The notes beneath the pieces are model-generated. The model worked only from the letters and a program-made list of their open reading frames with translations. It was not told where the DNA came from and did no database searches. The position numbers were made by a program, and so were the translations under genes. Below are positions 18,800 through 62,360 of a stretch of DNA of 64,000 bases, one piece after another; within the stretch, counting starts at the first letter, position 1; every line of letters starts with the position of its first letter. Source of the stretch: an uncultured bacterium (lineage in GTDB: Bacteria > CAYUVA01); assembly GCA_964448115.1 (NCBI GenBank), contig CAYUVA010000012.1:7769-71768 (forward strand), in the 5' to 3' direction.

Positions 18800-20773
18800 A
18801 TGTTGATTCGTTTACATAGGGACAAGCTGAGCGGAAAGCTGGAGATAGCCTTAACTGGCATAATGATCCTTTATATCCTGGTCATGGTTCAAGCCAAGCT
18901 GAACTGTTTCGATCTCTTTTTACACCTGGCAACCGGCAGGTATATCATTGAAAATTCGAGCATCCCTAGGCAGGATGTCTTCTCGTTCACCAATCTGGGT
19001 CGCCCCTGGACATGCCACGAGTGGGGATTCGGGGTGTTTATCTACTTACTCTACAAGGCAATCGGCTTGGAGTTGCTGAGCCTGCTAAAGCCGATCCTCA
19101 TCGGGCTAACATTCTATCTATGTATCAGGATCACCAGGTTGAAGGGCGCCCAGGCTTGGGCTTTATTCATCCCCATATTCCTCTCGCTGAAGCCGGTACA
19201 CTTCAACATGTTGCTTCGCCCACAATTGTTGACCTTCATGTTCTTAGTGCTAGTGCAATATCTACTGGAGCGAAACCGCTACTCAGGGGAAAAAAGGTTG
19301 CTATACCTGCTTCCACCGATATTCTTGATCTGGGCTAATGTGCATGGGGCGGTTATTATCGGCATGGGTTATTATCTGCTTTATTTGGTCGCCTGCTTCA
19401 TGGACTTGAAGCTTAACCTCCCAATAGGCACGAGTATCGATAAAGAAAGGATGCTGAAGGCATTTTGCCACGCATTATTGATGCTACCAGTTTCATGGTT
19501 GGTTAGCCTGCTGAATCCCAGCAATATCGGTATTTATACCTACTATTTCAAGGTAAGGGGTCTTACAAAGGATATCTTCATCCTCGAATGGCAACCACCC
19601 ACCTTAAGTGGTCATAGCTGGTTCTTCGTATATTTTGCTTTCGCTGTCATCATGTTTCTCCTATGCTGGCGAAGGTTCGGTGCTGTTGAGCTATTTACCC
19701 TTATCGCCTTTGGTTACCTGGGATTATCCGCGCGCAGAAACATGGCAATATTTGTATTTATGAGCCTTCCCATTGTCGCCCTGGCTATAACAACTGCTGG
19801 AAAATGGATATATAAAAAGCTGGGGAATAAACCCCTTCGCCGATGCTTGCAGGTCGTCTATGCGGCTGTAATACTTGGCTTGGGATCATTCATGGCAATC
19901 AGTGTGATAAACGATTGGCGCCTGAAGTACGGGATTGGAGTCGAAGAGAAACAATATCCCCAAAGGGCAGCGGACTTCATCGAACAGAATCAGCTTGTCG
20001 GACAGATGTTCAATTCATACCAGATCGGGGGCTACCTTATCTGGAGATTCTATGGCCAAAGACAGGTGTTCTACGATGGCAGAACCGTTCTGCACAGCTC
20101 ACTTCTGACCAAGCTAACCCGGCAGACCTGGGAGAGGATCTTTGAGGATCTGGAGATAAACTTTTGCATAATCAGCAGCCCCTGGAAGCACGCGGTGGTG
20201 GAGAACCTGGTCATACAAGACTTAGAAGCCTGGCGCCTGGTTTACTGGGATGCCGAGTACCTTGTCTATCTCAAGGATGATGTCATAAATCAACCGGTCA
20301 TAGAGCAACACGGATACCAGTACGCCAATCCATCGATTCTGGTCAGCTCGCTGCCGATAAGTGAATACCCGATACTCATCGAGGAGCTTGAGCGAAATCT
20401 GGCTCTTGCGCCCGACAATCCGATGGCATTGACCATGCTGGCAACGGTTTATGCCATACAAGGTGGTGCTGCAAATAAAGCCGAGGCGATGAGACTGCTC
20501 AGGGAGGCAATAGAGCTGGATCCTCGCTTCGCAAAGGCTTATGCCAGGCTCTCTTACCTTTACTACCAGATTGGGAAATATTCCGATTCGGTTGACTTTG
20601 GATTAAAAGCCATGCAGCTCGGCGTTCAGACCGATGAATTATGGTTTCTGGTCGGCAAGGCTTATGTGAAACTGGGTGATAAAAAAAAGGCAGCCTCGAT
20701 CTTTCGCAACTTAAACCAAAAGGGCTTCATCGATGATGAGCTACTTTATTACCTGAAGCTGGCAGAGGGATGA
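18800..20773 (+). CDS. Polytopic membrane protein with C-terminal TPR repeats (architecture of GT-C fold TPR glycosyltransferases such as TMTC/PMT)
   Basis: About 10 hydrophobic helices in the first 370 aa or so. C-terminal TPR-like repeats (LALAPDNPMALTMLATVYAIQGG ... AIELDPRFAKAYARLSYLYYQIGKY). Function is inferred from architecture only. Confidence 0.75.
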   Translation: MLIRLHRDKLSGKLEIALTGIMILYILVMVQAKLNCFDLFLHLATGRYIIENSSIPRQDVFSFTNLGRPWTCHEWGFGVFIYLLYKAIGLELLSLLKPILIGLTFYLCIRITRLKGAQAWALFIPIFLSLKPVHFNMLLRPQLLTFMFLVLVQYLLERNRYSGEKRLLYLLPPIFLIWANVHGAVIIGMGYYLLYLVACFMDLKLNLPIGTSIDKERMLKAFCHALLMLPVSWLVSLLNPSNIGIYTYYFKVRGLTKDIFILEWQPPTLSGHSWFFVYFAFAVIMFLLCWRRFGAVELFTLIAFGYLGLSARRNMAIFVFMSLPIVALAITTAGKWIYKKLGNKPLRRCLQVVYAAVILGLGSFMAISVINDWRLKYGIGVEEKQYPQRAADFIEQNQLVGQMFNSYQIGGYLIWRFYGQRQVFYDGRTVLHSSLLTKLTRQTWERIFEDLEINFCIISSPWKHAVVENLVIQDLEAWRLVYWDAEYLVYLKDDVINQPVIEQHGYQYANPSILVSSLPISEYPILIEELERNLALAPDNPMALTMLATVYAIQGGAANKAEAMRLLREAIELDPRFAKAYARLSYLYYQIGKYSDSVDFGLKAMQLGVQTDELWFLVGKAYVKLGDKKKAASIFRNLNQKGFIDDELLYYLKLAEG

Positions 20774-20799
20774 AAATTTCACTATACATAGGTGCATAA

Positions 20800-21813
20800 A
20801 TGGATAAGAGCTTGTTTAACCTCAAGCTGCGCTACCACCTTGGGCACATAGCCCAACATGTAAACATGCGCCTGCCCAAGAAACAACGATATCCCAAGGC
20901 TGTGTTGCTTGAGGTTACCGATGCCTGCAACCTGTCCTGCTCGATGTGCCCGGTAAACAATCCAGAGGCGGTGCGAAGAAAGAAAAGAAGCTTCATGGAA
21001 TTCGAGCTTTTCAGGCAGGCGGTAGATGAAATAGCCACCTTTGCTCCCTGTCATCTCCAGCCCCAGGGCGGCGGAGAGCCACTACTACATCCACAATTCG
21101 AGCAGATGCTAAGATATGCAAGGAAAAAGCCTGCAATTACCATTGGATTCAACACCAATGCAATGGCTCTTGATGAACATTGGGCGAGACTCTTGGTAGA
21201 ATTAAAGATAGATGAGATCGGCATCAGCCTCGATGCTCACGATGCACAAAGCTTCAAGGAGATAACAGGAAAGGACGGCTTTGAGAAGGTGAACGAAAAT
21301 ATCCATAGGTTGATCGAGGTCAAGCAAGAAACAGGTTCCACAAAGCCGATGATAAAGCTCCTGCTGGTCATCATGGATGAGAACAATGAGTATGTTAGCG
21401 ATTACATAAACAAATGGATACAGCTAGCCGACCAGGTATGCATCCAGGCAAAACGGGATATGACCGGCAGAAAAGTGCCCCAACCATTGATTCCCCCTCG
21501 CCGTCCTCACCCTTGCACAAGGCTGTTTACCACCGCGGTAGTCAACGCCAAGGGAGAGCTTGTATTGTGTTGCGAGGACTGGGACTCGCAGGTAACCTTC
21601 GGATGCATTAAAGATAAAAGCATCCTTGAACTATGGAATTCCCCCAAGTACGAAGCGTTTCGCAAAAGACACCTATCCGGGAATGTAAAGGGACTGACCT
21701 TGTGCCAGGATTGCTATGTCTTATGCAATGATCACATAGAGTTCGAGCGACGCCAGGGACTTGTCATACAAAGATCCCTCGCCGTGGAGACCTACACGAG
21801 AGCAAGGCAATGA
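20800..21813 (+). CDS. Radical SAM protein with C-terminal SPASM/twitch-like Cys-rich domain
   Basis: CxxxCxxC: EVTDACNLSCSMCP. C-terminal Cys cluster: CTRLF...LCCEDWDS...FGC...LCQDCYVLC. Stop overlaps the next gene's ATG (ATGA). Confidence 0.85.
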   Translation: MDKSLFNLKLRYHLGHIAQHVNMRLPKKQRYPKAVLLEVTDACNLSCSMCPVNNPEAVRRKKRSFMEFELFRQAVDEIATFAPCHLQPQGGGEPLLHPQFEQMLRYARKKPAITIGFNTNAMALDEHWARLLVELKIDEIGISLDAHDAQSFKEITGKDGFEKVNENIHRLIEVKQETGSTKPMIKLLLVIMDENNEYVSDYINKWIQLADQVCIQAKRDMTGRKVPQPLIPPRRPHPCTRLFTTAVVNAKGELVLCCEDWDSQVTFGCIKDKSILELWNSPKYEAFRKRHLSGNVKGLTLCQDCYVLCNDHIEFERRQGLVIQRSLAVETYTRARQ

Positions 21814-23333
21814 CAGCCAGCAACCAGCCCAAAGTATTGCTCATCTTCCCTCCAACCCATTATCGGAATCATACCCCGCCTTTAAACCTCGCTTACTTAT
21901 GTGCTTGCCTGAGGAGGGCGGGTTGCTCGGTCAAGGTGATCGACGCGGCTGCGGTCAAGGTCGATCTAAGCATCGATGAGATAACCTGTCTGGCTAGGGA
22001 TTATCAGCCGGATCTCATCGGTATCACCATGAATGCCCTGTTCATTCTCCCTGCCTACGATCTTGCCCGCCGGTTGCGAGCTATCGGCGTTCCAATAATC
22101 GCTGGCGGTCCCCATCCAAGCATTTTGCCTGATGAAGCGCTTGAAAATGGCAGCCATATCGTGGTCAGAAACGAGGGTGAGTTGACCGTAATGGAGCTTA
22201 TCGAGTGGCTGCGGGGGAATAGAAGGCTGGAGGAGATCGCCGGCATCAGCTTTATGAAAGACGGCGTGGCGAAACATAATCCACCTCGAGCCCTTATCGA
22301 TGATCTCGATTCGCTGCCATTTCCGGATAAGGATATCTTTGAGCGCGCCGATTATATAGAAGACTCCGAGCTTTACCAGTGCTATGGAACTATCTTCTCC
22401 AGCCGCGGCTGCCCGCATAATTGCACATATTGCAATAAGAGCGTCTTCGGTAGGGTAGTGCGCGCTCGCAGCCCGGAAAATGTCCTTGAGGAGATGCTTT
22501 ATCTAAGGCGAAATTATGATGTAACCGCCTTCGAGTTCCTCGATGACACCTTCTCGCTTCGCTTAGATAGGGTCGATAAGATCTGCGATATGATCCTCGC
22601 TGAACCGGAGCTGAAGGGGATCTGCTGGCAGTGCACCACTCGCATGGATCTCACCTCGGACGAGCTGCTTCAAAAGATGCGCCAGGCAGGGTGTTTCAGG
22701 CTATTTTACGGCATGGAAAGCGGAGACCAGGAGACGCTCAAGAGAGTAAATAAGCGCTTGAACATCGAAAAGGCGGTGCAGGTGCTGAAGTGGACACATG
22801 ATCTGAAGATGCGTTCCATCGTTGCTTTTATGTTCGGCTTCCCATGGGAGACAACCAAACATGTCTCCAATACCTACTCCCTGCTCCGGCGCATAAGTCC
22901 TTATGTCGATGAGTACAACCCATTGGGGATGTTAGTTCCGGTGCCGGGCACGCCGATGTATGAGCAGTATCACCGGGAATATGGCTTCACTGACTGGTGG
23001 CTTATGCCGAGCTTCGGCATCAGGTATCGCTCAAACCAGTACTTCCCTTATTTTCGGCGCCGATTCTTCAATGACTTCGCTTTGCTGGAGGATGGCTTTT
23101 TCAGTTACCCGCCGGCGGTTAAAAGAGAGATAAAAAGATGCCTTCGCTTCATCGGCAAGCACAACATCTATAAAAACAATCCGCGCATCAAGGCTCATAC
23201 CATTTATTGCTTCGTCCTTATATCAAAGGTTCTGTATAGGGTGCATCCCAAGCTGGAGCAGCTCGTATTCTTCATACTAGGCAGGATAAAAAAGATCATT
23301 TTTAATTATTCGTTCAGAATAACAAGGAACTAG
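21810..23333 (+). CDS. B12-binding (class B) radical SAM protein
   Basis: N-terminal B12-binding-like region (VLLIFPPTHY ... LNLAYLCACLRRAGCSVKVIDAA). Radical SAM motif SSRGCPHNCTYCNK. 507 aa. Confidence 0.9.
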   Translation: MTASNQPKVLLIFPPTHYRNHTPPLNLAYLCACLRRAGCSVKVIDAAAVKVDLSIDEITCLARDYQPDLIGITMNALFILPAYDLARRLRAIGVPIIAGGPHPSILPDEALENGSHIVVRNEGELTVMELIEWLRGNRRLEEIAGISFMKDGVAKHNPPRALIDDLDSLPFPDKDIFERADYIEDSELYQCYGTIFSSRGCPHNCTYCNKSVFGRVVRARSPENVLEEMLYLRRNYDVTAFEFLDDTFSLRLDRVDKICDMILAEPELKGICWQCTTRMDLTSDELLQKMRQAGCFRLFYGMESGDQETLKRVNKRLNIEKAVQVLKWTHDLKMRSIVAFMFGFPWETTKHVSNTYSLLRRISPYVDEYNPLGMLVPVPGTPMYEQYHREYGFTDWWLMPSFGIRYRSNQYFPYFRRRFFNDFALLEDGFFSYPPAVKREIKRCLRFIGKHNIYKNNPRIKAHTIYCFVLISKVLYRVHPKLEQLVFFILGRIKKIIFNYSFRITRN

Positions 23334-23377
23334 AAAACTGTATTTAGATAACTAGGAACTAATAAACAAGAAACTAA

Positions 23378-25150
23378 TTATCGAGATAAAGAATACATAA
23401 TATCTTCCAGGCGACCATCCTTAAACATCAGCACCACATTATCGTATTTTAGGCGTTCAATGGTCTCAAGGTTATCATCGGGAAGTGAAATATTAAGGAA
23501 GGCAGCCGTCTCTTCTATGCCCATGCCAGGCTCCAGGAAATCTGTGATCCCATCGCAGGTGAAATCGATGAATCGGTCATCACAATAGCATCTGTCCTCA
23601 TAGCTTCGGAAAACTCCGCTCATGTAACCATTCTCGAACAGGTAGGAGGCATAGCCCCTGGGGGTGCTATAGATGGCGATAAAAGGAGCCTCCTGGTTAT
23701 CGACCTCTACGAATCCCCTTGAGTAAGATCGATTTATCTTTACAATAAAATCAGGCTTGCCAGCGAGGCTCGTGAAGTAATCCACTGGTGAAAGATTCAA
23801 CGCCATAAGAAACTTATGCTCCTTAGCCATCTGCTGATCGACCTCTAGCGGTTTCAATCCTGTGGATAATAGTCTTATCTTGTCGGTAAGGATCTGTCGG
23901 AAGCTGAGTTCTCCAACGGTTGGAATATAGCCGCTTGCGAATTGGTGCAAAAACAAGGCATTGTAGGCAACAAGAACCAGGTACAAAGCAACCGTCGGTA
24001 TGGACAGTCTTCTTCCACTGACTTGCTGGAGTAACTCGGCAGCGCCAAAGGCGATTATGGCCGTAACGCAGGCGAACTGCCTTAAGCCATAATGCATCCC
24101 GATGCCATAAAACTTGACACAACTGTTTATGTAGGCTTGCATGAAAAAGGCTATCAGCAGCGAGATCAGAAGTAACCTTCTTCTTGCGCCGATTATCAAT
24201 CCGATCAAGCCGATACCTAAAAAAGGTGTCCAGACCAATAAACCGTGGTTGGTGGAGAAGAACATGGACAACAGCTTGGGATGCTGCGGACGCAGAAACG
24301 AGCTGCCTGCATAATAATATACGAAAAGTTTCTCGTGGATATACTGCCAGTAGATGATCTGCGGAGAGAATCCGATCAGCGCTGATGGGATGATCAAAGC
24401 GTTGATGCCGATTATACGGGGGATTATGATGAAGTTTCTCGATCTCATCGCCTGGTATAGCCTCCAGATCATATCAAGCAGCGGCAGGATCAGAAAAAGT
24501 CCATTCTGCCAGCGCACCAGGATCATCATCCCCCCTGCCAGCCCGAGTATAATCATGCTCCTTGCCGTGGGATCATTCCTCTGCTGATGCCAATAGTAGA
24601 TAAAAAGGGTAACCGCAAAGAATGAAGGGGCGTGGTTCATCGTGGTCTGCCATATTGTGGTGTTCAGGGTCGCTGTTCCCGCGACCGCAGCTAATGAGCA
24701 TAACCCGCTTATCCATATCGGGTAGTGGCTCCTCAGCAGCCGAAAGGTCAGCGCAATGCCAATGAAGCTGTATAATAGGTTGGCAAAGTAGGCTGAAAAT
24801 CGGTGGAATAGCGACATTGGGTCCGTGGATACCGCAAATCCAAGCTTGGATAGGATGATGCTAAGAAGATGAAAGAGCGAAAAAAATGGCGCCCAGAGAA
24901 GAGCCGTGCCAACTGGAACCGAGTGATAATGACCTCGCTGTGGATTAAGCAGAACCTGCCTCTCCATCCACCAGAAGCTACGGTCGAATATAAAGCTGAC
25001 CACCTGGCTATAGTATCCGTTGGCATCCCCCTCAAGAATCGGCTTGATATCGAGACGCACCTGTATCACGAAGAAAAGGGCTAGAATAAACAAAGCAGCC
25101 AATACCCAAAAAAATGGAAGCTCACCTGAAATCTTATCTTTGAGGCTCAT
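23378..25150 (-). CDS. Polytopic membrane protein, putative GT-C fold glycosyltransferase (ArnT/PMT-like topology)
   Basis: 590 aa with 12 or more hydrophobic segments. Acidic loop motif EGDANGYY after TM1 resembles the first-loop DE motif of GT-C families. No soluble catalytic domain recognisable. Confidence 0.65.
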   Translation of the reverse strand: MSLKDKISGELPFFWVLAALFILALFFVIQVRLDIKPILEGDANGYYSQVVSFIFDRSFWWMERQVLLNPQRGHYHSVPVGTALLWAPFFSLFHLLSIILSKLGFAVSTDPMSLFHRFSAYFANLLYSFIGIALTFRLLRSHYPIWISGLCSLAAVAGTATLNTTIWQTTMNHAPSFFAVTLFIYYWHQQRNDPTARSMIILGLAGGMMILVRWQNGLFLILPLLDMIWRLYQAMRSRNFIIIPRIIGINALIIPSALIGFSPQIIYWQYIHEKLFVYYYAGSSFLRPQHPKLLSMFFSTNHGLLVWTPFLGIGLIGLIIGARRRLLLISLLIAFFMQAYINSCVKFYGIGMHYGLRQFACVTAIIAFGAAELLQQVSGRRLSIPTVALYLVLVAYNALFLHQFASGYIPTVGELSFRQILTDKIRLLSTGLKPLEVDQQMAKEHKFLMALNLSPVDYFTSLAGKPDFIVKINRSYSRGFVEVDNQEAPFIAIYSTPRGYASYLFENGYMSGVFRSYEDRCYCDDRFIDFTCDGITDFLEPGMGIEETAAFLNISLPDDNLETIERLKYDNVVLMFKDGRLEDIMYSLSR

Positions 25151-25346
25151 GAGGATAGCCTTTATACTAAACTCTCCTCTCGGTTTCGTTTACAGGCGCA
25201 ACTTGGACTATCTCTTGATTTAATCTACCATATCTCTCATGTGAAGAGGTAATTTTTTTCGGTCAAGTCTGTTTTTTCCTGTAAAATCTGACATGGCTTA
25301 AACTACCACCGGAGCGAATCCGAGGATCAGGATTATTCAGTCTATT

Positions 25347-26157: not shown

Positions 26158-28587
26158 TCAAGCCTTCAGCATACAGATAGCAGCTATGATATAAATAGCA
26201 CCTGAGAGCATAAAAAGAAAGGTGAATCCGATGGTCATGGCTATAAACATGGCTGCAATGGAGCCGATGACCGATGCGCAGCCATTTATACCCCAGCACC
26301 AAGGAGTAAACTTGGTTTTCCTTTGTGATACCATAAGCAAGCCTGATGGAAAGGGCATGCCTAGCAATAATCCTATCGGTGCAGTGATGACAAGCGCGAT
26401 AGCTACTCTGATAAAAAATGGGATGCCCAGTAGGCTATCGAGCAGTGGGAAAACCAGAGATACATATAATGTGATCAAGCAAACCAGCGCTATTACGACC
26501 AGGGTAACATTTCTTTTGGCTTTATCCTGCAATCTCGAGGCTAGCAGGCTGCCGACCCCGGTAAAGACCAATATCGAAAGCAGCACAACGGTTATCGAGT
26601 AGATCGGATGCCCCAAGAACAGGTTCAGCTTCTGGATCAAAGAGATCTCCATGAACATGAAGCCGACGCCCAGGCAAGTGAAATAAACCAGAAAAAATCC
26701 AGAGCCAGGCATCCGAATCCCGTCTTTGTTGTTCTTGTAAAGTGGATAAAGGATAAAAAGCACCGAGAGGAAGATCGCCTGGATGAATAAGACGATAAGA
26801 ATTATCTCTCCGATGGGGAAACTAGCGCCATCCTGACCGCCTACACCACTGGGAGAGAGTCTGAAGTCATGCCACTTGTAGTACTTGAAGAAAAACGGCG
26901 CATCATCATATACCGGCACGATGTTATATCGGTACATTTCATAGAAAGCTTGCGGATCATCGCTGTTAAGCAAGCCATAAAAAGCGTTGTTCCCCACCCG
27001 TCCAGGCAGGTAGAGTTTCTCAAAGCCATTTTTATCGGCAAAACTACGCAATGTATCTATCTCTCGTCTGGTCAGGGGAGTTTTCTTGAGGATAAAGCTG
27101 GCGTAAGTCCCCTCGCCGATGACCGCAATATTATCCCTTGGATGTCCCATATCGGCACACTCGAAGGCTACTATGGCGAGTGAACATAGCCTGAGCACCT
27201 CCCGTGGAGGACGAAACATGTAGCGGATATAGCATATAGTGCCGTCATCCTTGAGATGAGCCAGCATATCGAGGATGGCTTCTACTGTATAGAGGTAATT
27301 CTCGCTGAGCGTATATGCTCCCGATGCCAGCCCTGACCAGGTGTCCACGCCAGATAACTGGATATGGTCATACTGCTGCTTGCTTCTCCTGATGAAGCTC
27401 CTTCCCTCGCAATAGTGGATATCTACCAGCTTGTGTTGATAAAGATTTCCCGTGAAGTCAGCGAAATACCTGCCGGGTATATCGACCATGACCCGGTTCA
27501 GCTCAGCGCCATCTACCCTTGAGGCTCCGTTTTTCAGCGCGGTGAGGATGTCTATACCCCCGCCTAATCCGATTGCAAGCACCTTCGGTGCATCGTGCAA
27601 TTGGTATGCTACTGAATAAAGTGCATGATCCAGCGCTTCCAACTTGCTAAAGTCCCCATCGAAGGCGGTAAGCATGGTGCCAGCGTCTCCATCTATCGAG
27701 ATCCCGTACTGCGGGGGGATGTAGCCCTTATAGCGGTCGCTTAAACCGACTATATGCATCGGCGCCGGATGCTCGCTGATAGAGGTTACATCCAGGCGGG
27801 ATATCAGGCTCCACTTGGAGAAGACGATGCGAGGGGCGTAGCCCTGCTTGGATAGCGCAAGCATCTCCGCCAGTCCCTTGCTCGGACAAGGAGGGACGCG
27901 CAGGGCGGTAGGAGATATGACAAACAGGAAGACAAAGATAAAAACTGATCCACCGACCTTTAGATAATCCCAACACTTTAAGGATCCAAGAGAAAATAAA
28001 ATAAAGGCTGCTAATGGTAATGTCGCACAGATTATTAAAACACGCGGCGCACCTAGAGGTGATATCAAGCCAGCCACCAGCAGGCATCCTACCCCGGCGC
28101 CGAGTAGATCCCAGAAATAGATGCGACTTATTCTCGCTGGATACATGGTAAAAGAGGCGCCAATAATCACCCCGGCAAAGAAAAATGGCACAAACAACAA
28201 TAGGTAATATAAGAACAGGTAGATCAACTGTATTGGCTCAGACCAAACCTTGAACGGATCCAGCGGTATCTCTCTAAGTAGAATATAGGCTACAATAGTG
28301 CTTATCGAGAAAAATAGCGAATTATCGGACAGCATCCTCTTATGCGCATCGTCTCTGGCAAGGCTGCTGCTTACCGACAGATAAGCCCCGGATGCGCCGA
28401 AGCCCAACAGCACGATACTTATAACCATGAAGGCGAAGTGGTACCATATCGTTATACTGCATATCCGAGTTAGCAGGATCTCCAGTGAAAGCACCGAACA
28501 GGAGACCAGGAAGATCCCGGCATAGACGCTGCTGGAGAATCGATTCGAGGTGTTATAATTCATTTCTATCCTTGAGCTATTATTCAA
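26158..28587 (-). CDS. Membrane-embedded spermidine synthase-like (aminopropyltransferase-fold) protein
   Basis: 809 aa with many TM helices at both ends. Central Rossmann region VLAIGLGGGIDILTALKNGASRVDGAELNRVMVDI ... KLVDIHYCEGRSF ... YDHIQLSGVD matches the spermidine/spermine synthase SAM/dcSAM-binding fold. Confidence 0.8.
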   Translation of the reverse strand: MNNSSRIEMNYNTSNRFSSSVYAGIFLVSCSVLSLEILLTRICSITIWYHFAFMVISIVLLGFGASGAYLSVSSSLARDDAHKRMLSDNSLFFSISTIVAYILLREIPLDPFKVWSEPIQLIYLFLYYLLLFVPFFFAGVIIGASFTMYPARISRIYFWDLLGAGVGCLLVAGLISPLGAPRVLIICATLPLAAFILFSLGSLKCWDYLKVGGSVFIFVFLFVISPTALRVPPCPSKGLAEMLALSKQGYAPRIVFSKWSLISRLDVTSISEHPAPMHIVGLSDRYKGYIPPQYGISIDGDAGTMLTAFDGDFSKLEALDHALYSVAYQLHDAPKVLAIGLGGGIDILTALKNGASRVDGAELNRVMVDIPGRYFADFTGNLYQHKLVDIHYCEGRSFIRRSKQQYDHIQLSGVDTWSGLASGAYTLSENYLYTVEAILDMLAHLKDDGTICYIRYMFRPPREVLRLCSLAIVAFECADMGHPRDNIAVIGEGTYASFILKKTPLTRREIDTLRSFADKNGFEKLYLPGRVGNNAFYGLLNSDDPQAFYEMYRYNIVPVYDDAPFFFKYYKWHDFRLSPSGVGGQDGASFPIGEIILIVLFIQAIFLSVLFILYPLYKNNKDGIRMPGSGFFLVYFTCLGVGFMFMEISLIQKLNLFLGHPIYSITVVLLSILVFTGVGSLLASRLQDKAKRNVTLVVIALVCLITLYVSLVFPLLDSLLGIPFFIRVAIALVITAPIGLLLGMPFPSGLLMVSQRKTKFTPWCWGINGCASVIGSIAAMFIAMTIGFTFLFMLSGAIYIIAAICMLKA

Positions 28588-31068: not shown

Positions 31069-31968
31069 ATGAGGCGATACATGGAGAATTTAGTTGCCAC
31101 CGCTGATGGCGTAAAGCTTTTCTATCGTGATTACGGGGAGGGCTTGCCACTGGTGCTCTGCAATGGCTTTGCCTGCAACGATTATGCCTGGAAATACATG
31201 GTTCGACACTTCCAGGACAAGATGAGGGTGATACTTTGGGATTATCGTGGACATGGTCGCTCCAGCCTCCCTGCCAGGGTTGAACCGTTTGAATTCAGCC
31301 TTTTCATCGATGATCTTTTCACGGTACTGGATAATGCTGGAGTAGAAAAAGGCGTTTTTGCCGGGCATAGCATGGGAGTACAGACTATCCTGGAGGCTTA
31401 CCGTCGGGATGCAAAGCGAGTTGCTGGGCTTATACCGATCTGCGGCAGTTTCAAGAACCCTGTGGAGACCTTTCAGGGCTTGCGTATCTTCCATTATCTT
31501 ATGCCTTATCTCTTCGTTGGGATGCGCCATTTACCGCAGATGCTCAGCTTCTCATCTAAGCACATCTTCAACGGCGAGCTTGGATGGCTGGTTGCTATTA
31601 CAATCGGCATCAACGGGTATTTGATCAACAAGGAGGACTTCATGCCCTACCTGGATCACCTGGCGACCAGGGACTGGTGTTTCATGGGCGAGCTGGCAAG
31701 GGCGATGAGGGAGCAGTCCGCTGATGACTTGCTTGAACGGGTAAAGGTTCCCACTTTGGTGGTCGCCGGTGATGAGGATAAGTTTACCCCCCTTGAGCTA
31801 TCCCTTGAGATGGCAAACAGGATTCCCAATGCCGAGCTGCTCGTGGTCAAGCACGGGATGCATACGACTACACTTGAGCAACCGGAGCTGGTGAACCTCA
31901 GGATAGAGAAATGGCTTTGCAAGCATGGTTTCTTGATAAAAAAACAAGAAGGTAAGGTGCAGCGATGA
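31069..31968 (+). CDS. Alpha/beta-fold hydrolase
   Basis: Nucleophile elbow FAGHSMGV (GxSxG). LVLCNGFA ... C-terminal region with Asp/His. Alternative ATG at 31081 has better RBS spacing. Confidence 0.88.
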   Translation: MRRYMENLVATADGVKLFYRDYGEGLPLVLCNGFACNDYAWKYMVRHFQDKMRVILWDYRGHGRSSLPARVEPFEFSLFIDDLFTVLDNAGVEKGVFAGHSMGVQTILEAYRRDAKRVAGLIPICGSFKNPVETFQGLRIFHYLMPYLFVGMRHLPQMLSFSSKHIFNGELGWLVAITIGINGYLINKEDFMPYLDHLATRDWCFMGELARAMREQSADDLLERVKVPTLVVAGDEDKFTPLELSLEMANRIPNAELLVVKHGMHTTTLEQPELVNLRIEKWLCKHGFLIKKQEGKVQR

Positions 31969-33500
31969 GTCCTGAAAATACTAGACTCTCGTCGGGTACG
32001 ATAAGGAAGCTGAAACAAATATTTGGGAAAGAGAATGTCTCCACCGACGAGACCGACAAGATAAGCTACTCCAAGGATATGTTGCCAGCGGGATTGCTGG
32101 CGATAAGGCGATTGGAGCCACCGCCTCCGCCTGATGTAATCGTCTGGGCACATAAAACCGAGCAAATATGCGAGCTGCTTCAGTTGGCGAACAGCCAGGG
32201 CTTCCCGGTCATACCTTATGGTGCAGGATCCGGCGTCTGCGGAGGTACATTTCCGCTTAGCGGGGGCGTCATATTGGATATGAAGCGGATGGATAAAATT
32301 ATCGAGCTTGATGACAATTCCCTTACCGCGAAGATCCAGGCTGGCATCGTGGGGCAGATTCTGGAGATGGAGCTGAACCGAAGGGGCTATACCCTGGGGC
32401 ATTTCCCATCCTCCATCTATTGCTCGACCCTGGGCGGGTGGCTAGTTACACGCAGCGCAGGACAGCTCTCCACCAAGTATGGCAAGATCGAGGATATGGT
32501 CATGGGCTTGCAGGTGGTGCTCCCTAGCGGACAGGTGATCGCCACCAAGGCTGTGCCCCGCAGCGCTACCGGACCCAACTTGACCCAGTTGTTTGTCGGC
32601 TCCGAGGGATTGCTCGGTGTGGTTACAGAAGCGATCATGCGCATCTGTCCCTACCCCCAGGCTATTCGCTATTGTGCATACCTCTTTCCCGATGTACCCA
32701 GCGGATGCGAGGCTATTCGCCTAATACTGAGAAGCGGCGCCAAGCCTGCTGTGGTCAGGCTCTACGATGAGCTGGATACCATGCTGGTCGGCTCCGGCAA
32801 GGCTGATGATGAGGGCGATTCGCTGATCAAGCGCCTTATTGGCTCTTACATCAAGGAGAATGTGCCCGCTGGAGTTCTCAAGGCAGTGGTCAATCACTTC
32901 ACGGTGGTGGAGAAGCTCTCCAAGGCGCTCAAGGCGCAGTGCCTCCTCATTCTCGGAATGGAGGGAAGCGAGGAGCTGGTCGAGGCGGAGAGTAGCATTG
33001 TTCAAAGGGTGTGCAAAGAGGCTGGCGGTAAAGACCTGGGAGAAAAGCCGGGATTGAACTGGGAGAAGTCTAGGTATAATGTCTCTTATCGCATGTCCAC
33101 CGTGTTCGACTCTGGGGCTTTTGTCGATACCATCGAGGTTGCCATCACCTGGGATCGCCTGACCGAGCTTTACTTTGCGGTTAGAGAGGCACTAGTGCCG
33201 CACTGCTTCATCATGGCGCACTTCTCACATGCATACCCAGAGGGTTGCTCCATATACTTCACCTTTGTTGGCGCAGCAGATGACGATAAACAAAGTGAAA
33301 AGAAATACTTCGAGATATGGGACAAAGCGCTCAATGCAGTTCTATCTGTAGGGGGCACAATCAGCCACCATCACGGCATCGGCTGGCTGAAGGGCAAGTA
33401 CATGCCCGCAGAGCACGGGGATGCCTTTGAGGTGCTGCGCGCCATAAAAAGCACATTGGATCCAAACAATATACTCAATCCAGGAAAACTGGGATTATAA
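31965..33500 (+). CDS. FAD-linked oxidase (PCMH-type FAD-binding; GlcD / D-lactate dehydrogenase / alkyl-DHAP synthase family)
   Basis: FAD-binding: PVIPYGAGSGVCGG ... GGVILDMKRMDKI. C-terminal HHHGIGWLKGKYM ... LDPNNILNPGKL. ATGA overlap with the upstream hydrolase gene. Confidence 0.92.
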   Translation: MSPENTRLSSGTIRKLKQIFGKENVSTDETDKISYSKDMLPAGLLAIRRLEPPPPPDVIVWAHKTEQICELLQLANSQGFPVIPYGAGSGVCGGTFPLSGGVILDMKRMDKIIELDDNSLTAKIQAGIVGQILEMELNRRGYTLGHFPSSIYCSTLGGWLVTRSAGQLSTKYGKIEDMVMGLQVVLPSGQVIATKAVPRSATGPNLTQLFVGSEGLLGVVTEAIMRICPYPQAIRYCAYLFPDVPSGCEAIRLILRSGAKPAVVRLYDELDTMLVGSGKADDEGDSLIKRLIGSYIKENVPAGVLKAVVNHFTVVEKLSKALKAQCLLILGMEGSEELVEAESSIVQRVCKEAGGKDLGEKPGLNWEKSRYNVSYRMSTVFDSGAFVDTIEVAITWDRLTELYFAVREALVPHCFIMAHFSHAYPEGCSIYFTFVGAADDDKQSEKKYFEIWDKALNAVLSVGGTISHHHGIGWLKGKYMPAEHGDAFEVLRAIKSTLDPNNILNPGKLGL

Positions 33501-34624
33501 TGCTCAACAAGTACCTTAAGGAACACGCAAAGACGATAAGCTACTGCACCTATTGCCCCAAGATGTGTCGTTTTGCGTGCCCGGTCGGGGTCGCTGATGC
33601 CTCTGAGACCTCCATTGTCCAGGGACGGATGACCTTGCTTCACCTGGCGCTGGGAGGGGCTATCGACTTTGATGAACAGGTAGCCTCTATGGCATATAAA
33701 TGCTGCACCTGCCTGCACTGCAATACCTACTGCCGTCATGACTTCAACATACCGGATGTCATGTACGATGCCAGGCGAGCAGCCTATGAACTCGGAGTGG
33801 AACCGAAGATAATAACCGAGCGGATGCTCAACTTTGAGCACTTCAACAATCCATATCCCTTGGATCTGAGGGACGAGCTGGAGGGTCTGGTCGAGGAGCG
33901 CTTCTTCGCAAAGGGCGCCTCCGCGGTCTATTTCCCTGGCTGCAATACTATCTTGAGGCAGCAAAAGAACCTGTTGAATACCCTCGAGATATTCGATGAG
34001 CTAGGTATTGATTTTGTCTCGGTTTGGCAGGATAAGCAGCAGTGTTGCCTGGCACCGATGATTACCGCGGGGAGAACATCTGAGTTCATCGCCCTGGCAA
34101 GGGGGATCGCCAGCGCGATGAGGGACTACAGGCTGATCATCTTTGCTTGTCCGCTTTGTTATTATGCCTTCAGGGTGCTCTATCCTCGGTATGGCTTCAA
34201 TATAGGCAGAAAGATGCTGCACATCAGCGAGTTTTTGCTCGACAGATTGAAGGGCAGTAAAAGGAAACTGAAGCCAGGAGATTATGGTAAGATCGCCTAT
34301 CATGATCCCTGCTACCTGGGGCGCTACATGGGGATATATGATGCACCCCGCGAGCTGCTCGTGCTGTGCGTTGGTGATGCTTTCAGCGAGCTTTACCGCG
34401 TTCGCCAGGATTCGATTTGCTGTGGAGCTAACGGGTGGCTGCCTGCTGTCTATCCTCAGACCTCGCGGCGCATCCTAGACTTGAAGCTCGCCGAGTATCG
34501 TGAGATGGAATATGATGCCTTAGTTACCGCCTGCCCTACATGCGAGACCCACTTCAACAAGCGAGCGAAGGATATCGAGGTGCTAGATCTGGTAAACATA
34601 CTTCGCAATACGCTATATCGATAA
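33500..34624 (+). CDS. Fe-S oxidoreductase with two CCG domains (GlcF / HdrD-like)
   Basis: Two ferredoxin-like Cys clusters (CTYCPKMCRFACPV; CCTCLHCNTYC) and two CCG motifs (CCLAPMITAG; CCGANGW). Start overlaps the upstream stop (TAATG). Confidence 0.9.
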   Translation: MLNKYLKEHAKTISYCTYCPKMCRFACPVGVADASETSIVQGRMTLLHLALGGAIDFDEQVASMAYKCCTCLHCNTYCRHDFNIPDVMYDARRAAYELGVEPKIITERMLNFEHFNNPYPLDLRDELEGLVEERFFAKGASAVYFPGCNTILRQQKNLLNTLEIFDELGIDFVSVWQDKQQCCLAPMITAGRTSEFIALARGIASAMRDYRLIIFACPLCYYAFRVLYPRYGFNIGRKMLHISEFLLDRLKGSKRKLKPGDYGKIAYHDPCYLGRYMGIYDAPRELLVLCVGDAFSELYRVRQDSICCGANGWLPAVYPQTSRRILDLKLAEYREMEYDALVTACPTCETHFNKRAKDIEVLDLVNILRNTLYR

Positions 34625-34636
34625 CAAGGTTGGCTC

Positions 34637-35560
34637 ATGCAAGCCCGACATAGCACCATTTGGACCATCCTGTTGGTCGGCATCGCTGCCTTGGCTTTAG
34701 CCGGGGCAGATCATAATCAGTCCCTGGCATCCCTTATGTCCGATCCCAAGGAGAAGCCCTTTATCAAGCAAGGATGGTTTTATGATCTGAACCTGGCGCT
34801 TCAGGCTGCCAAGACGAGCCGAAAGCCAATCCTGATCCAGTTCTACACCACCTGGTGCGGGTGGTGCAAGAAGCTGGAGAATACTACTTTCTCTGATGGC
34901 AATGTAACCGTGTATCTCAAAGAAAACTTCATAACAGTCAAGCTGAACGCCGAGAAGGTCGATCGGATCGCTAAATCATACCAGGTGCGCTCCTTTCCCA
35001 GCTTCGTGCTTCTCGATGCCAAAGGTGAGGAGATAGACCGCTTCAACGGATATAGAGATGGTAGAAAATTTAAGGCACTGCTCGAAGCCTTGCTTTTCAG
35101 CCCGCACACTTTCGGCGCTCTGCGGTCAAGGATGAGAGACGGAACCGCCAATGATGAGGATCTGCTCAACCTTGCCAGGGGATATGCAGCCAGGAACATG
35201 CTCCTTAAGGCAGGCGAGGCATACCAGTTAATAATCGACCGCGACTTCTACAGTAAGGGACACTTCACTGATCGAGCGCTATATGAGCTTGGCATACTGA
35301 TGATGAAGCAAAGGAAATACCCGGATGCCCTAGATTTGTTCAAGCGAGTGTACGAGAAATTCGCTAATAGCGACCTGCAAGGGCGATCTATGCTCATGAT
35401 TGGACAGGTCTATGAGCTTTCCGAAAAACCATCCATTGCCATGGGCTGGTACAAGCGATTCATCGACCATTATCCCAATGCGAAGGAGGTTGGCTGGGCG
35501 CAGAAAAAGTTAGAAAAGCTAAGAAAGGAAATCGCAGTAAAAGAAAACGATCAGCCATGA
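34637..35560 (+). CDS. Secreted thioredoxin-fold protein with C-terminal TPR-like region
   Basis: Signal peptide MQARHSTIWTILLVGIAALALAG. Thioredoxin active site ILIQFYTTWCGWCKKLE (CxxC as WCGWC). C-terminal TPR-like helices (ALYELGILMMKQRKYPDALDLFKRV ...). Confidence 0.8.
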   Translation: MQARHSTIWTILLVGIAALALAGADHNQSLASLMSDPKEKPFIKQGWFYDLNLALQAAKTSRKPILIQFYTTWCGWCKKLENTTFSDGNVTVYLKENFITVKLNAEKVDRIAKSYQVRSFPSFVLLDAKGEEIDRFNGYRDGRKFKALLEALLFSPHTFGALRSRMRDGTANDEDLLNLARGYAARNMLLKAGEAYQLIIDRDFYSKGHFTDRALYELGILMMKQRKYPDALDLFKRVYEKFANSDLQGRSMLMIGQVYELSEKPSIAMGWYKRFIDHYPNAKEVGWAQKKLEKLRKEIAVKENDQP

Positions 35561-36579
35561 ACAGATATATCATCTACCCGGCATTCATCCCCCATCTCGG
35601 CTGCCCCTTTGAGTGTGTTTACTGCAATCAGCGGCTGGTCAGCGGACAGGTAAACCTTAAGCCACCGCAAATAAGGCAGGGGCTGAACGAATGGCTAGTA
35701 TCAATCAAGAGAAAACCGAGCGCTGATGGGATGACAAGGGTGGTCGCATTCTACGGGGGAAGCTTCACCGGCTTGAGCCTTGAAGAACAGCAGTATTTTC
35801 TTACGCCAGCTACCGAAGCTAAGCGACGAGGCGATATCGATTCCATCAGGCTCTCTACCCGTCCCGACTTGATCGATGCCGAAAAGCTGGCTTTCTTAAA
35901 AAAGATGCTGGTTGATACTGTGGAGCTTGGCGCTCAATCTATGGATGATGATGTACTCAAGCAAAGCAAGCGGGGACACAGGGCAATAGATGTCAAACAA
36001 GCGGTGGATGCATTGCGTGCACATAATCTCAAGGTTGGCTTGCAGATAATGCCTGGGCTCCCCGGCCATACAGACCGGAGCATCGACTTTACCATCAGCG
36101 AGAGCATCGCGCTCAAGCCCGATATGGTGCGCATCTATCCAACCGTAGTGCTCAAGGGGACAGCATTGGAGGCGATGTTTCGCAAGGGAGCATACAAGCC
36201 GCTTGCGATCGATGATGTCGTTTCAATGGGAGTAGGGTGGCTTAAACGCTTTACTGATGCTGGTATTCCAGTCATTCGACTCGGATTGCATCCCGATCCA
36301 TACCTGGTTAGCTCGAATGCGGTTGTGGCTGGTCCCTTTCATCCCGCGCTTCACTACCTGATAAGGTGTCGCATGGCAAGAGAAAAGCTTGCTTCCCTAT
36401 TGCGTAATTCGCAGCCGTCCAGGAATGCAGTGGTGGTTATCAAGGTTCCAGCAGCCAGGCTGAGCGAGTATCTGGGCAATAGACGGGAGAATATACAATT
36501 TCTTGCAGAGATGTTTGATATCGGAGAGCTTGAGATAATACCTGATGCAACGATTAGCGTGCCGGTGATCGCTAATTAA
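35557..36579 (+). CDS. Radical SAM protein (ELP3-like / TIGR01212-like core)
   Basis: IPHLGCPFECVYCNQ cysteine motif near the N-terminus. GG glycine-rich SAM motif VAFYGGSFTG. ATGA overlap with the upstream gene. Confidence 0.85.
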   Translation: MNRYIIYPAFIPHLGCPFECVYCNQRLVSGQVNLKPPQIRQGLNEWLVSIKRKPSADGMTRVVAFYGGSFTGLSLEEQQYFLTPATEAKRRGDIDSIRLSTRPDLIDAEKLAFLKKMLVDTVELGAQSMDDDVLKQSKRGHRAIDVKQAVDALRAHNLKVGLQIMPGLPGHTDRSIDFTISESIALKPDMVRIYPTVVLKGTALEAMFRKGAYKPLAIDDVVSMGVGWLKRFTDAGIPVIRLGLHPDPYLVSSNAVVAGPFHPALHYLIRCRMAREKLASLLRNSQPSRNAVVVIKVPAARLSEYLGNRRENIQFLAEMFDIGELEIIPDATISVPVIAN

Positions 36580-36595
36580 TTGATATCTCACGCAA

Positions 36596-36708
36596 AGACA
36601 CAAAGAACTCAAGGAGGATAGAAAAACGAGGTACAAGGAACAAGAAACCAAGTGCGAAGAAAGGAATCCCACGCAAAGACGCAAAGAGGAAAAGGACGCA
36701 AAGAGGAT
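36596..36708 (+). repeat. Purine-rich 5' leader with repeated CGCAAAGA(C/G) units and many GGA motifs
   Basis: cacgcaaagaca (36589-36600), cacgcaaagacgcaaagagga (36670-36690), gacgcaaagagga (36695-36707). Seven or more GGA trinucleotides in about 120 nt immediately upstream of the GT4 ATG at 36709. Confidence 0.45.
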
Positions 36709-37893
36709 ATGAAAAAGAGGATCCTGATCATTAGCTCCACGGCGCCCTATCCGCTGGACAACGGCGGAGCACAGAGGCTTTATCACATACCTCGCCTGCT
36801 GTCCGATGACTACGAATTCCACCTGATAACCTTCAGCAAGCAGGGAGTGGAAGCCTCTATGATCGCCGATGCTGCGCCATTCTATGCAAGCGTTAAAACT
36901 GTACCTCTCGGCAGGTATCCCGCTCGCTTGAATGCAGTGCGCATTACACCACGAATGGTGCTGCACCACAAGAGCAGCGAGATGGGGCAGGTGATATCAT
37001 CCGCCATCGACCAATATAGTTTCGACCTGGTGCAGATCGACTACACGCAGATGGGGCAGTATGCCAGGCTGCTACCCAATTCGCTCCCTCGTGTCCTGGT
37101 CGTGCATGACATCGCCCACATAGTCTATAAACAATTATTTTTAATAAAGCCGATTTCATTAAATAAGCTGGTTTCATTGAGCGAGTATGCAAAGATACTA
37201 TTCTACGAGAGGCGAGTTTTCCATAATTTCAGGCAACTGGTCGCCCTGAGCGATCCTGATGGCAAATACCTGCACAAGATTTGCTCTAATAAGCAATCCA
37301 TATCAGTGATCCCACAAGGCTTCGATGAGCACCAGCTCAAGGGAATAATCGGCGAACATAGCGACAAGCCGCAGCTTCTCATAGTCGCCAACCTGGGCAC
37401 GCAGCCGAACATCATCGCAATCAACGATTATCTTAAATATATCCATCCCCGCCTAAAAAAGCGCTTTCCTGGGCTGACTATATGGATTGTTGGCTCTGAT
37501 CCCCACAATCTCTTTAATGGTAAGCGTATCAAGGGAGTAGAATTCACCGGCTATGATGATGATCTAAGTAAATTCTATGCCCGCAAGCCGATCTGCATAC
37601 TGCCTTACCGCATCGGCTCTGGAATGCGAACAAAGGTGCTGGAGGCAATGGCTGCCGGGTTGCCCATAATAGCGACTCCACTGGCTGTATCCGGGATACC
37701 GCTGCTAGATGGCGAATCAGCGCTGATTGAATCATCCATTCCTCGCTTTGTCGATCGTTTAGGGCAGCTAATACCGGATGCTCAAGCCAGGTTGCGCCTG
37801 GGCGAATCAGCTAGGGAGCTTGCATTCAAGCATTTTACTTGGGGCAACGCTGCTCAACTGGTCGATTGTCTTTTTCAAAGTATCCTTGGCTAG
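36709..37893 (+). CDS. Glycosyltransferase family 1 (GT4-type)
   Basis: MKKRILIISSTAPYPLDNGG ... ILPYRIGSGMRTKVLEAMAAGLPIIATPLAVSGIPLLDGESALI. The ORF track's GTG at 36652 would add a basic RRKESHAKTQRGKGRKED extension, so I prefer the ATG at 36709. Confidence 0.88.
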   Translation: MKKRILIISSTAPYPLDNGGAQRLYHIPRLLSDDYEFHLITFSKQGVEASMIADAAPFYASVKTVPLGRYPARLNAVRITPRMVLHHKSSEMGQVISSAIDQYSFDLVQIDYTQMGQYARLLPNSLPRVLVVHDIAHIVYKQLFLIKPISLNKLVSLSEYAKILFYERRVFHNFRQLVALSDPDGKYLHKICSNKQSISVIPQGFDEHQLKGIIGEHSDKPQLLIVANLGTQPNIIAINDYLKYIHPRLKKRFPGLTIWIVGSDPHNLFNGKRIKGVEFTGYDDDLSKFYARKPICILPYRIGSGMRTKVLEAMAAGLPIIATPLAVSGIPLLDGESALIESSIPRFVDRLGQLIPDAQARLRLGESARELAFKHFTWGNAAQLVDCLFQSILG

Positions 37894-39373: not shown

Positions 39374-39438
39374 TCTATTAGTATCTAGTATATCTAACAA
39401 TGAGTTGTCAATCTAGGGGAGGCTTCCATAGAATTCAC

Positions 39439-62232: not shown

Positions 62233-62360
62233 CAAGATAATGTTTTCCTTCATTTTTAGGGCTTGCATTCTGAGCAAAATACCCAGGGAGCCGTACCTGT
62301 AAATTTTACTTGCATGAATAATTTATTATGTTACTATTGTTATAGAGAAGGCAGGCAGAA

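Follow-up and report, generated by a model that had tools for sequence, protein, structure and literature searches.

We analyzed a 64,000-nucleotide (nt) stretch of DNA from an uncultured bacterium (GenBank assembly GCA_964448115.1, contig CAYUVA010000012.1, positions 7,769 to 71,768; here called the window), with a focus on two overlapping genes for radical S-adenosylmethionine (SAM) enzymes and the membrane protein genes on either side of them (Table 1). The favored interpretation, to which we assign a probability of roughly 40%, is that the overlapping genes encode a cytoplasmic sugar-tailoring pair; overall, we regard it as plausible but unproven. The first gene product is a BtrN-type twitch enzyme, and the second is a class B enzyme, which carries a B12-binding domain. 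A sugar is favored over a peptide as the substrate because BtrN is the best profile match of the twitch enzyme, auxiliary-cluster domain included, with four cysteines at constant offset, and because relatives of the twitch enzyme pair with class B genes inside glycan clusters. It is further favored because the solved proteins nearest to the B12 enzyme, AprD4 and OxsB, act on sugars or nucleosides and because the gene for a GT-C-fold membrane protein with tetratricopeptide repeats (TPR) lies 26 nt upstream, in a window with many glycan genes.

Table 1. Positions of the genes and the gap discussed in the text. The first five rows give window positions; the last four give DUF6485 genes in loci of B12-enzyme relatives.
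Feature	Positions	Strand	Basis
GT-C-fold glycosyltransferase-like membrane protein, TPR-bearing, 657 aa	18800-20773	+	ORF list, Pfam, structure comparison
BtrN-like twitch radical SAM enzyme, 337 aa	20800-21813	+	Pfam, family alignment A1, PDB profile match
Class B (B12-binding domain) radical SAM enzyme, 507 aa	21810-23333	+	Pfam, orthologue alignment A5
Putative divergent PMT_2/ArnT-like GT-C membrane protein, 590 aa	23378-25150	-	Family homology, loop motif
Intergenic gap, 196 nt, upstream of 590-aa gene	25151-25346	.	Only sizeable gap near the radical SAM pair
DUF6485 gene	L020:1489-1692		
DUF6485 gene	L021:632-832		
DUF6485 gene	L022:9751-9951		
DUF6485 gene	L023:228-428		

The four open reading frames (ORFs) and the stop/start overlap described in an earlier reading of the letters alone (the sequence-only reading) were confirmed. 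The stop codon of the twitch gene and the start codon of the B12 gene share 4 nt, ATGA at 21810-21813, within ggcaATGAcagcc (21806-21818). Consecutive genes around the locus are separated by 12, 26, -4, 44, and 196 nt. That reading had also seen no precursor gene for a peptide that is ribosomally synthesized and posttranslationally modified (RiPP) next to the pair, and our inspection of ORFs and gaps agreed, as no precursor-sized gene fitted beside it. The gaps of 12, 26, -4, and 44 nt leave no space for such a gene at the pair, and the 196-nt gap contains only a 24-aa ORF on the minus strand (25220-25294) and a portion of a 67-aa TTG ORF overlapping the 590-aa gene. Promoter and terminator scans gave only background-level signals, a tRNA scan found none, and Rfam returned no families, cobalamin and SAM riboswitches included.

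The 337-aa protein matched the Pfam models Radical_SAM (E = 5e-20) and SPASM (E = 3.6e-13), each above the cut-off. Its radical SAM cluster motif (C43/C47/C50) is invariant in the family alignment (A1), which beyond this CxxxCxxC conserves only C239, C257, C258, C302, and C305, in the pattern C239-x12-G252-x4-C257, C258, C302-x2-C305. In the window protein, a nonconserved C309 extends the last part to Cx2Cx3C. A full SPASM domain, with two auxiliary clusters, has the seven-cysteine signature Cx9-15Gx4C ... Cx2Cx5Cx3C ... C. The Cx5Cx3C motif and the terminal cysteine are absent from this family; what is conserved corresponds to the opening half of the SPASM motif (C-x12-G-x4-C) and a CxxC, not to that signature. 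Twitch enzymes are instead recognized by a shortened SPASM domain, four cysteine ligands (C...C...CxxC), and homology to BtrN, their prototype from the butirosin pathway. The cysteine set is in place here, and when the family profile was compared with all PDB sequences, it matched BtrN best (E = 2e-21), over the radical SAM core as well as the C-terminal domain of the auxiliary cluster. Of the SPASM/twitch identity proposed earlier, the Pfam SPASM match thus stands and the full seven-cysteine SPASM does not: the protein is a BtrN-type twitch enzyme with one predicted auxiliary cluster.

In the residue-level alignment to BtrN, LCCEDW is paired with PCFEDF and CQDC with CKNC, so that C257, C302, and C305 are paired with BtrN cysteines and C239 lies at the same offset. 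These four residues are candidate ligands of one auxiliary cluster. The likeness extends to the twitch motif (G-x-L-x-L-C-C-E-D-F/W here, G-N-V-L-P-C-F-E-D-F in BtrN) and to the small size of both proteins without a RiPP recognition element (RRE), the PqqD-like peptide-recognition domain usually found at the N terminus of radical SAM RiPP maturases; the approximately 30 residues before CxxxCxxC in the twitch enzyme are too few for one. Because relatives start about 28 residues later, M23 is a possible alternative start. The window protein is nevertheless not a BtrN orthologue. Local identity is low, the single-sequence E value is 6.5e-9, and the core scores weakly. It is longer (337 aa versus approximately 250 to 270 aa), and has the extra conserved C258; its gene lies outside any aminoglycoside (butirosin or neomycin) cluster, among GT-C and housekeeping genes, and its relatives lie in Wzm/Wzt surface-glycan clusters. 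Its best NCBIfam model, a tungsten-cofactor maturase, scored 122 bits against a cut-off of 380. A word-indexed search recovered 18 relatives at 28 to 34% identity. By exact look-up, the twitch protein was found on one 1.8-kb Logan contig only, and the B12 protein had no match.

The assignment of the 507-aa protein to class B was borne out by Pfam, with a B12-binding domain (PF02310) at residues 19-130 (E = 3e-17; 63 bits, cut-off 32.1) fused to a Radical_SAM core at residues 197-358 (E = 7e-24); cobalamin binding is thereby predicted. Its cluster motif is C201-x3-C205-x2-C208, and the three cysteines are invariant in the orthologue alignment (A5). Both enzymes of the pair thus carry the CxxxCxxC of the radical SAM superfamily within a PF04055 core. 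Relatives of the B12 enzyme at 49 to 60% identity come from about 25 metagenome-assembled genomes (MAGs) and metagenome contigs, some of them named candidate division CSSED10-310, and this clade keeps a C-terminal extension with a hydrophobic helix. A scan of genome contigs with the B12 protein yielded distant relatives only (24 to 39% identity) and did not recover the 50 to 60% orthologues.

Among NCBIfam models, the B12 enzyme scored highest with ApyD (165 bits; cut-off, 750), followed by HpnJ (163; 577.6), BchE (155; 481), HpnR (111; 650), the ladderane B12 radical SAM model (95; 360), and AprD4 (95; 500). All RiPP-maturase models were far under their cut-offs, and HpnP was not among the 25 best families. 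The nearest solved sequences were AprD4 (E = 3e-22), the unnamed entry 9ccb, and OxsB (E = 1e-14). AprD4 (a paromamine diol dehydratase), OxsB, and C-methyltransferases of the GenK/Fom3 type have in common with the window protein a Rossmann-type B12-binding domain at the N terminus and, after it, a CxxxCxxC radical SAM core. With 95 of the 500 bits required, the B12 enzyme is not an AprD4 orthologue, and it differs from all of these in belonging to a distinct MAG clade with its own conserved C-terminal extension; its methyl transfer is a prediction. AprD4 itself reportedly does without cobalamin.

A second class B radical SAM gene in the window (37835-39400, minus strand; 521 aa) encodes a protein 29% identical to the 507-aa enzyme. 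It lies between a GT4 gene (36652-37893) and a Phosphodiest-family gene (39439-41166); beyond the latter comes a GT2-hexapeptide fusion (41114-43555). A third such gene, outside class B (35557-36579, plus strand; 340 aa; Radical_SAM plus Radical_SAM_C), comes after one for a thioredoxin-TPR protein plus an FAD-oxidase/CCG pair (31965-34624).

BtrN is a twitch radical SAM dehydrogenase that oxidizes 2-deoxy-scyllo-inosamine and has one Cys4 auxiliary cluster (PMC10337720). By analogy, the twitch enzyme of the window would abstract a hydrogen atom at a carbinol carbon in a sugar or cyclitol substrate and pass an electron to its single auxiliary [4Fe-4S] cluster, with a keto-sugar or epimer as the product. 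A further radical step on that substrate would fall to the class B enzyme, most likely C-methylation of an unactivated carbon or, alternatively, an AprD4-type dehydration. As the substrate, we propose a sugar linked to a nucleotide or to polyprenyl phosphate, on the cytoplasmic side of the membrane. The upstream TPR GT-C gene may be cotranscribed with the pair, and its product could transfer the modified sugar to a periplasmic protein or glycan acceptor.

We then examined the gene neighborhoods of twitch-enzyme relatives. A metagenome scan with the twitch protein gave 394 matching stretches, 80 of which were kept. Across 73 distinct loci, a class B radical SAM gene was immediately adjacent in 10/73 loci, within three genes in 19/73, and anywhere in the locus in 25/73; these counts are lower bounds, as many of the contigs are short. 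Among the ten closest relatives (L024-L033), seven had the class B gene adjacent. The pairs occurred in both gene orders, and most overlapped by 4 nt or lay within 9 nt of each other. Pfam annotation of the 145 neighbors within two genes of twitch relatives was led by SAM methyltransferases (26), ABC_tran (12), and Wzt_C (11), followed by GT2 (7), DegT aminotransferases (6), and GT9, GT4, lipid A acyltransferase-like, and ABC2_membrane (4 each).

The most interesting outcome of this analysis is that a twitch plus class B cassette recurs in glycan clusters of the Wzm/Wzt type. In three loci (L006 to L008), the twitch gene is coupled to a class B gene of 438 to 442 aa (4-nt overlap in L006, 4-nt gap in L007 and L008) amid genes for Wzm, Wzt (with Wzt_C), SAM methyltransferases, a lipid A acyltransferase-like protein, and GNAT, with GT2 as well in L006. 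The cassette (L006:5679-14854 and L007:4319-13801, also L025, L029, L030, and L032) comprises Wzm, Wzt, class B, twitch, methyltransferase, acyltransferase-like, and GNAT genes; its downstream genes were annotated by Pfam in L006 to L008 and inferred from matching ORF sizes in the other four. The contigs come from sediment, aquatic, and other environmental metagenomes. The layout resembles that of chain-terminating and tailoring cassettes in ABC-transporter-dependent (Wzm/Wzt) O-antigen pathways (e.g., with the kinase/methyltransferase WbdD) in that twitch relatives stand directly after Wzt_C-bearing Wzt genes and, in L006 to L008, precede genes for a SAM methyltransferase, an acyltransferase-like protein, and a GNAT. 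The cassette may make or modify the terminal residue recognized by Wzt_C. A terminal cap added by radical SAM enzymes is hypothetical, however, and not a described system, and our literature searches found no description of a twitch or class B radical SAM enzyme in O-antigen/Wzt pathways.

A bolder proposal, which we think unlikely, is that the translationally coupled twitch and cobalamin radical SAM genes form an undescribed cassette adding a radical-derived modification (keto-sugar, epimer, or C-methyl branched sugar) to surface-glycan precursors. In Desulfobacterales-type genomes, it would feed a Wzm/Wzt-exported polysaccharide, possibly as a terminal cap read by Wzt_C; in the window, the twitch enzyme would have acquired another class B partner, one resembling enzymes from MAGs of candidate division CSSED10-310, and would supply a TPR GT-C protein that glycosylates periplasmic targets. 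To our knowledge, radical SAM sugar tailoring has so far been characterized in antibiotic pathways (BtrN, AprD4, and GenK). If the proposal were true for both the window pair and the Wzm/Wzt cassettes, radical SAM sugar chemistry would extend to the envelope glycans of anaerobes, and unusual sugars would be expected in uncultured phyla. The locus offers cloneable, testable candidates.

Another window gene has counterparts near twitch relatives. It encodes a 785-aa polytopic protein (45083-47440, minus strand) with approximately 12 to 14 hydrophobic segments and no Pfam match, beside the UDP-GlcNAc 2-epimerase gene; weak homologs (20 to 27% identity) occur in the twitch-relative loci L027, L036, L038, L067, L073, and L077.

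The sequence-only reading had described both flanking membrane proteins as GT-C-like, which holds for the 657-aa protein by fold and probably for the 590-aa protein, by transitive homology. Pfam found only TPR repeats in the 657-aa protein (residues 526-640). Its structure model has about 11 transmembrane (TM) helices, an alpha/beta domain at approximately residues 388-504, and C-terminal TPR repeats at 520-656; given the number of helices and the positively charged N terminus, the alpha/beta and TPR domains are probably periplasmic. D38, in a DxWWHLxxG motif just after TM1, is nearly invariant and is the candidate catalytic aspartate. Comparison with known GT-C proteins gave values of 22.1 for STT3B, 18.5 for PglB, 16.6 for Pmt4, 16.3 for DPY19, 16.2 for AglB, 15.0 for Pmt2, 14.8 for ALG12, 14.0 for ArnT, and 13.7 for AftA, and Foldseek agreed on the GT-C match. 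As GT-C criteria, we took a multispanning GT-C fold, an acidic residue conserved in the first extracytoplasmic loop, and a soluble domain facing the same side of the membrane. The modeled 657-aa protein has all of these, and we are confident in predicting that it is a GT-C-fold, glycosyltransferase-like protein.

The 590-aa protein itself had no Pfam, NCBIfam, or PDB sequence match, and phmmer and hmmsearch runs of both membrane proteins against PDB sequences returned TPR matches only or none. AlphaFold2, run on the single sequence, gave an unusable model of this protein (predicted local distance difference test score, 39), so its GT-C status rests on transitive homology. A full HMMER search gave 4018 relatives (closest, 49% identity); a chimeric query (residues 1-520 of the TPR GT-C protein plus the 590-aa protein) had returned relatives of its first half only. 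PMT_2 was matched by 36/60 aligned family sequences (best E = 4e-11), the 60 being 59 relatives and the window protein, which has no PMT_2 match of its own. In hhalign, the family profile matched the TPR GT-C family with 96.3% probability (E = 1.8e-9). The protein has a membrane domain at approximately residues 14-430, followed by a soluble C-terminal domain. In its first loop, D42 is invariant in the family, and the second aspartate of the family motif D-x-D-L-D-F, D58, is replaced by serine, a loss that sets the protein apart from its GT-C relatives. From these similarities, it is a putative GT-C-like protein, probably of a divergent PMT_2/ArnT type. The closest known systems for both membrane proteins are GT-C glycosyltransferases that carry C-terminal TPR or other soluble domains: STT3/PglB/AglB, the PMT and TMTC O-mannosyltransferases, DPY19, and ArnT. 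Neither window protein reaches a Pfam GT-C model; sequence identity to solved GT-C proteins is 8 to 14%, and catalysis by the window proteins is putative.

Relatives of the TPR GT-C protein lie among PMT/PMT_2, TMEM260_N, and Wzy_C-TPR proteins and a small GT2 enzyme. The gene for its closest homolog (32% identity; L104:2959-7525) has redox genes on both sides: an FAD_binding_4/FAD-oxidase_C gene lies 2 nt upstream, and the gene downstream encodes a GFO/IDH/MocA oxidoreductase. By analogy, such flanking redox enzymes could tailor a sugar donor, which would favor a sugar substrate, although this is a single case. The two L104 redox genes are reminiscent of the DprE1/DprE2 style, in which a lipid-linked sugar donor is oxidized and reduced. 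Two further loci (L105:1-16329 and L106:8001-16699) contain arrays of four to six consecutive large TPR membrane proteins, with members of the TPR GT-C family and PMT/PMT_2, TMEM260_N, and Wzy_C-TPR proteins. These arrays suggest an extensive periplasmic glycosylation machinery in these uncultured bacteria.

Several observations weigh against the sugar-tailoring interpretation. Conservation of the neighborhood had been set in advance as a test, and it failed: we found the four-gene arrangement in no other locus examined and no homolog of either membrane protein in any fetched locus holding a B12- or twitch-enzyme relative. Each gene is a further member of a known superfamily, the arrangement was found only in this genome, and it is by adjacency there that the radical SAM pair is linked to the two GT-C proteins. 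All four proteins are singletons in their own 90%-identity clusters, and neither radical SAM enzyme reached any NCBIfam subfamily cut-off. Adjacency is itself weak evidence of a common function, because the plus-strand string that ends in the radical SAM pair starts with DprA, TopA, ExbD, and ABC-F genes (by Pfam), and these housekeeping genes (DprA, TopA, and ABC-F) are spaced just as tightly. The 590-aa gene, previously described as flanking the pair, is not codirectional with the pair but convergent to it; it lies downstream of the genes for an 809-aa membrane protein and a DEDD exonuclease and therefore belongs to a different transcription unit. Class B partners of twitch relatives are only 26 to 29% identical to the window B12 enzyme, so they are not orthologues, and the twitch family is joined in the window by another class B clade. 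Finally, the glycan genes of the window (three GT4, two GT2, and the UDP-GlcNAc 2-epimerase, besides the second class B gene) include neither Wzm nor Wzt anywhere in the 64 kb. The upstream ABC protein was considered as a Wzt and rejected: it is of the ABC-F type, with two ATPase domains and ABC_tran_Xtn, and has neither Wzt_C nor a membrane partner.

The surroundings of B12-enzyme relatives also count against the sugar-tailoring interpretation. At 53 to 54% identity, two relatives (L001:8365-12445 and L004:8344-13054) lie between a 541- to 548-aa PRK-domain (uridine-kinase-like) protein and a PfkB kinase, followed in L004 by a 208-aa protein matching the MetH activation domain (Pfam Met_synt_B12, 5e-8). 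The three closest relatives (55 to 60% identity) have a 66- to 67-aa DUF6485 gene with eight cysteines directly upstream (the one in L021 had been left uncalled), and neither a twitch enzyme nor either membrane protein was found near them. Across this range of 53 to 60% identity, the B12 enzyme thus keeps company with DUF6485 or PRK/PfkB without twitch or GT-C genes, which suggests a lineage-wide role of the clade independent of the neighbors seen here.

This pattern underlies the alternative that survives best, namely, that the neighbors are incidental: the pair, or the B12 enzyme alone, would act in a cytoplasmic small-molecule or cofactor pathway that this candidate phylum has conserved, and the GT-C adjacency would be an accident of a compact genome. 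The clade as a whole keeps its sequence and changes its neighbors, relatives at 38 to 39% identity have no shared context, no radical SAM genes were found beside TPR GT-C relatives, and the housekeeping genes belong to the same codirectional string. Chance adjacency fits less well with the twitch/class B stop/start overlap, which recurs independently in other lineages, and with the consistent location of the twitch family in glycan clusters, matched by a window rich in glycan genes. We consider this alternative possible but somewhat doubtful.

Peptide or protein modification, in which the class B enzyme would methylate a ribosomal peptide or small protein (as do ApyD and PoyC) and the twitch enzyme would be a RiPP-type maturase, seems very improbable. 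The top NCBIfam match of the B12 enzyme is indeed the RiPP enzyme ApyD, and Pfam labels the C-terminal domain of its partner SPASM, a domain common in RiPP maturases; the ApyD score, however, is far under the cut-off and is equaled by HpnJ and BchE, and the twitch enzyme lacks an RRE and has the BtrN-type cysteine set, not the seven-cysteine SPASM set. The Cys-rich DUF6485 gene upstream of the three closest B12 relatives is the nearest approach to the conserved precursor gene that would have spoken for a peptide. DUF6485 is absent from the 64-kb window, where the pair leaves no room for a precursor, and our literature searches returned nothing on it. Between loci, DUF6485 is 61 to 68% identical over its whole length and the enzymes 58 to 68%; such whole-length conservation, like that of the enzymes, fits a folded metal-binding partner better than a leader-plus-core peptide. 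DUF6485 may be a metal-binding partner or a substrate of the B12 relatives. RiPP hallmarks were absent from the 25 commonest of the 87 Pfam families near twitch relatives. The sequence-only reading had preferred a glycoconjugate or a lipid to a peptide, and our results uphold the sugar over the peptide through the BtrN match and the glycan clusters.

Its lipid half did not hold up, and membrane-lipid modification, as hopanoid methylation or the formation of glycerol dialkyl glycerol tetraether (GDGT)-type rings or cross-links, is less probable still: HpnP and HpnR are class B enzymes, HpnJ is among the top matches, the clade keeps its hydrophobic C-terminal helix, and one relative at 38% identity (L011) stands beside a UbiA prenyltransferase gene, but the HpnJ, HpnR, and ladderane scores are all under their cut-offs, neither hopanoid genes (including squalene-hopene cyclase) nor other lipid-pathway genes were seen in the window, and the context of the twitch family is glycan, not lipid. 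In the comparison with GDGT-MAS (Tes, 7tol), the twitch family profile matched over positions 9-134 only (E = 1.6e-7), which is the generic radical SAM core, and far less strongly than with BtrN; GDGT-MAS was not among the PDB matches of the B12 enzyme.

Two other window genes deserve mention. The 809-aa membrane protein (26158-28587, minus strand), whose gene is codirectional with the DEDD exonuclease and 590-aa GT-C genes, has two TM blocks flanking a weak spermine/spermidine-synthase-like domain (E = 0.0016). At 60931-63470 (plus strand), a GT4 follows a SAM methyltransferase whose long C-terminal region has only weak matches to coiled-coil families; the architecture may resemble that of WbdD-type chain terminators.

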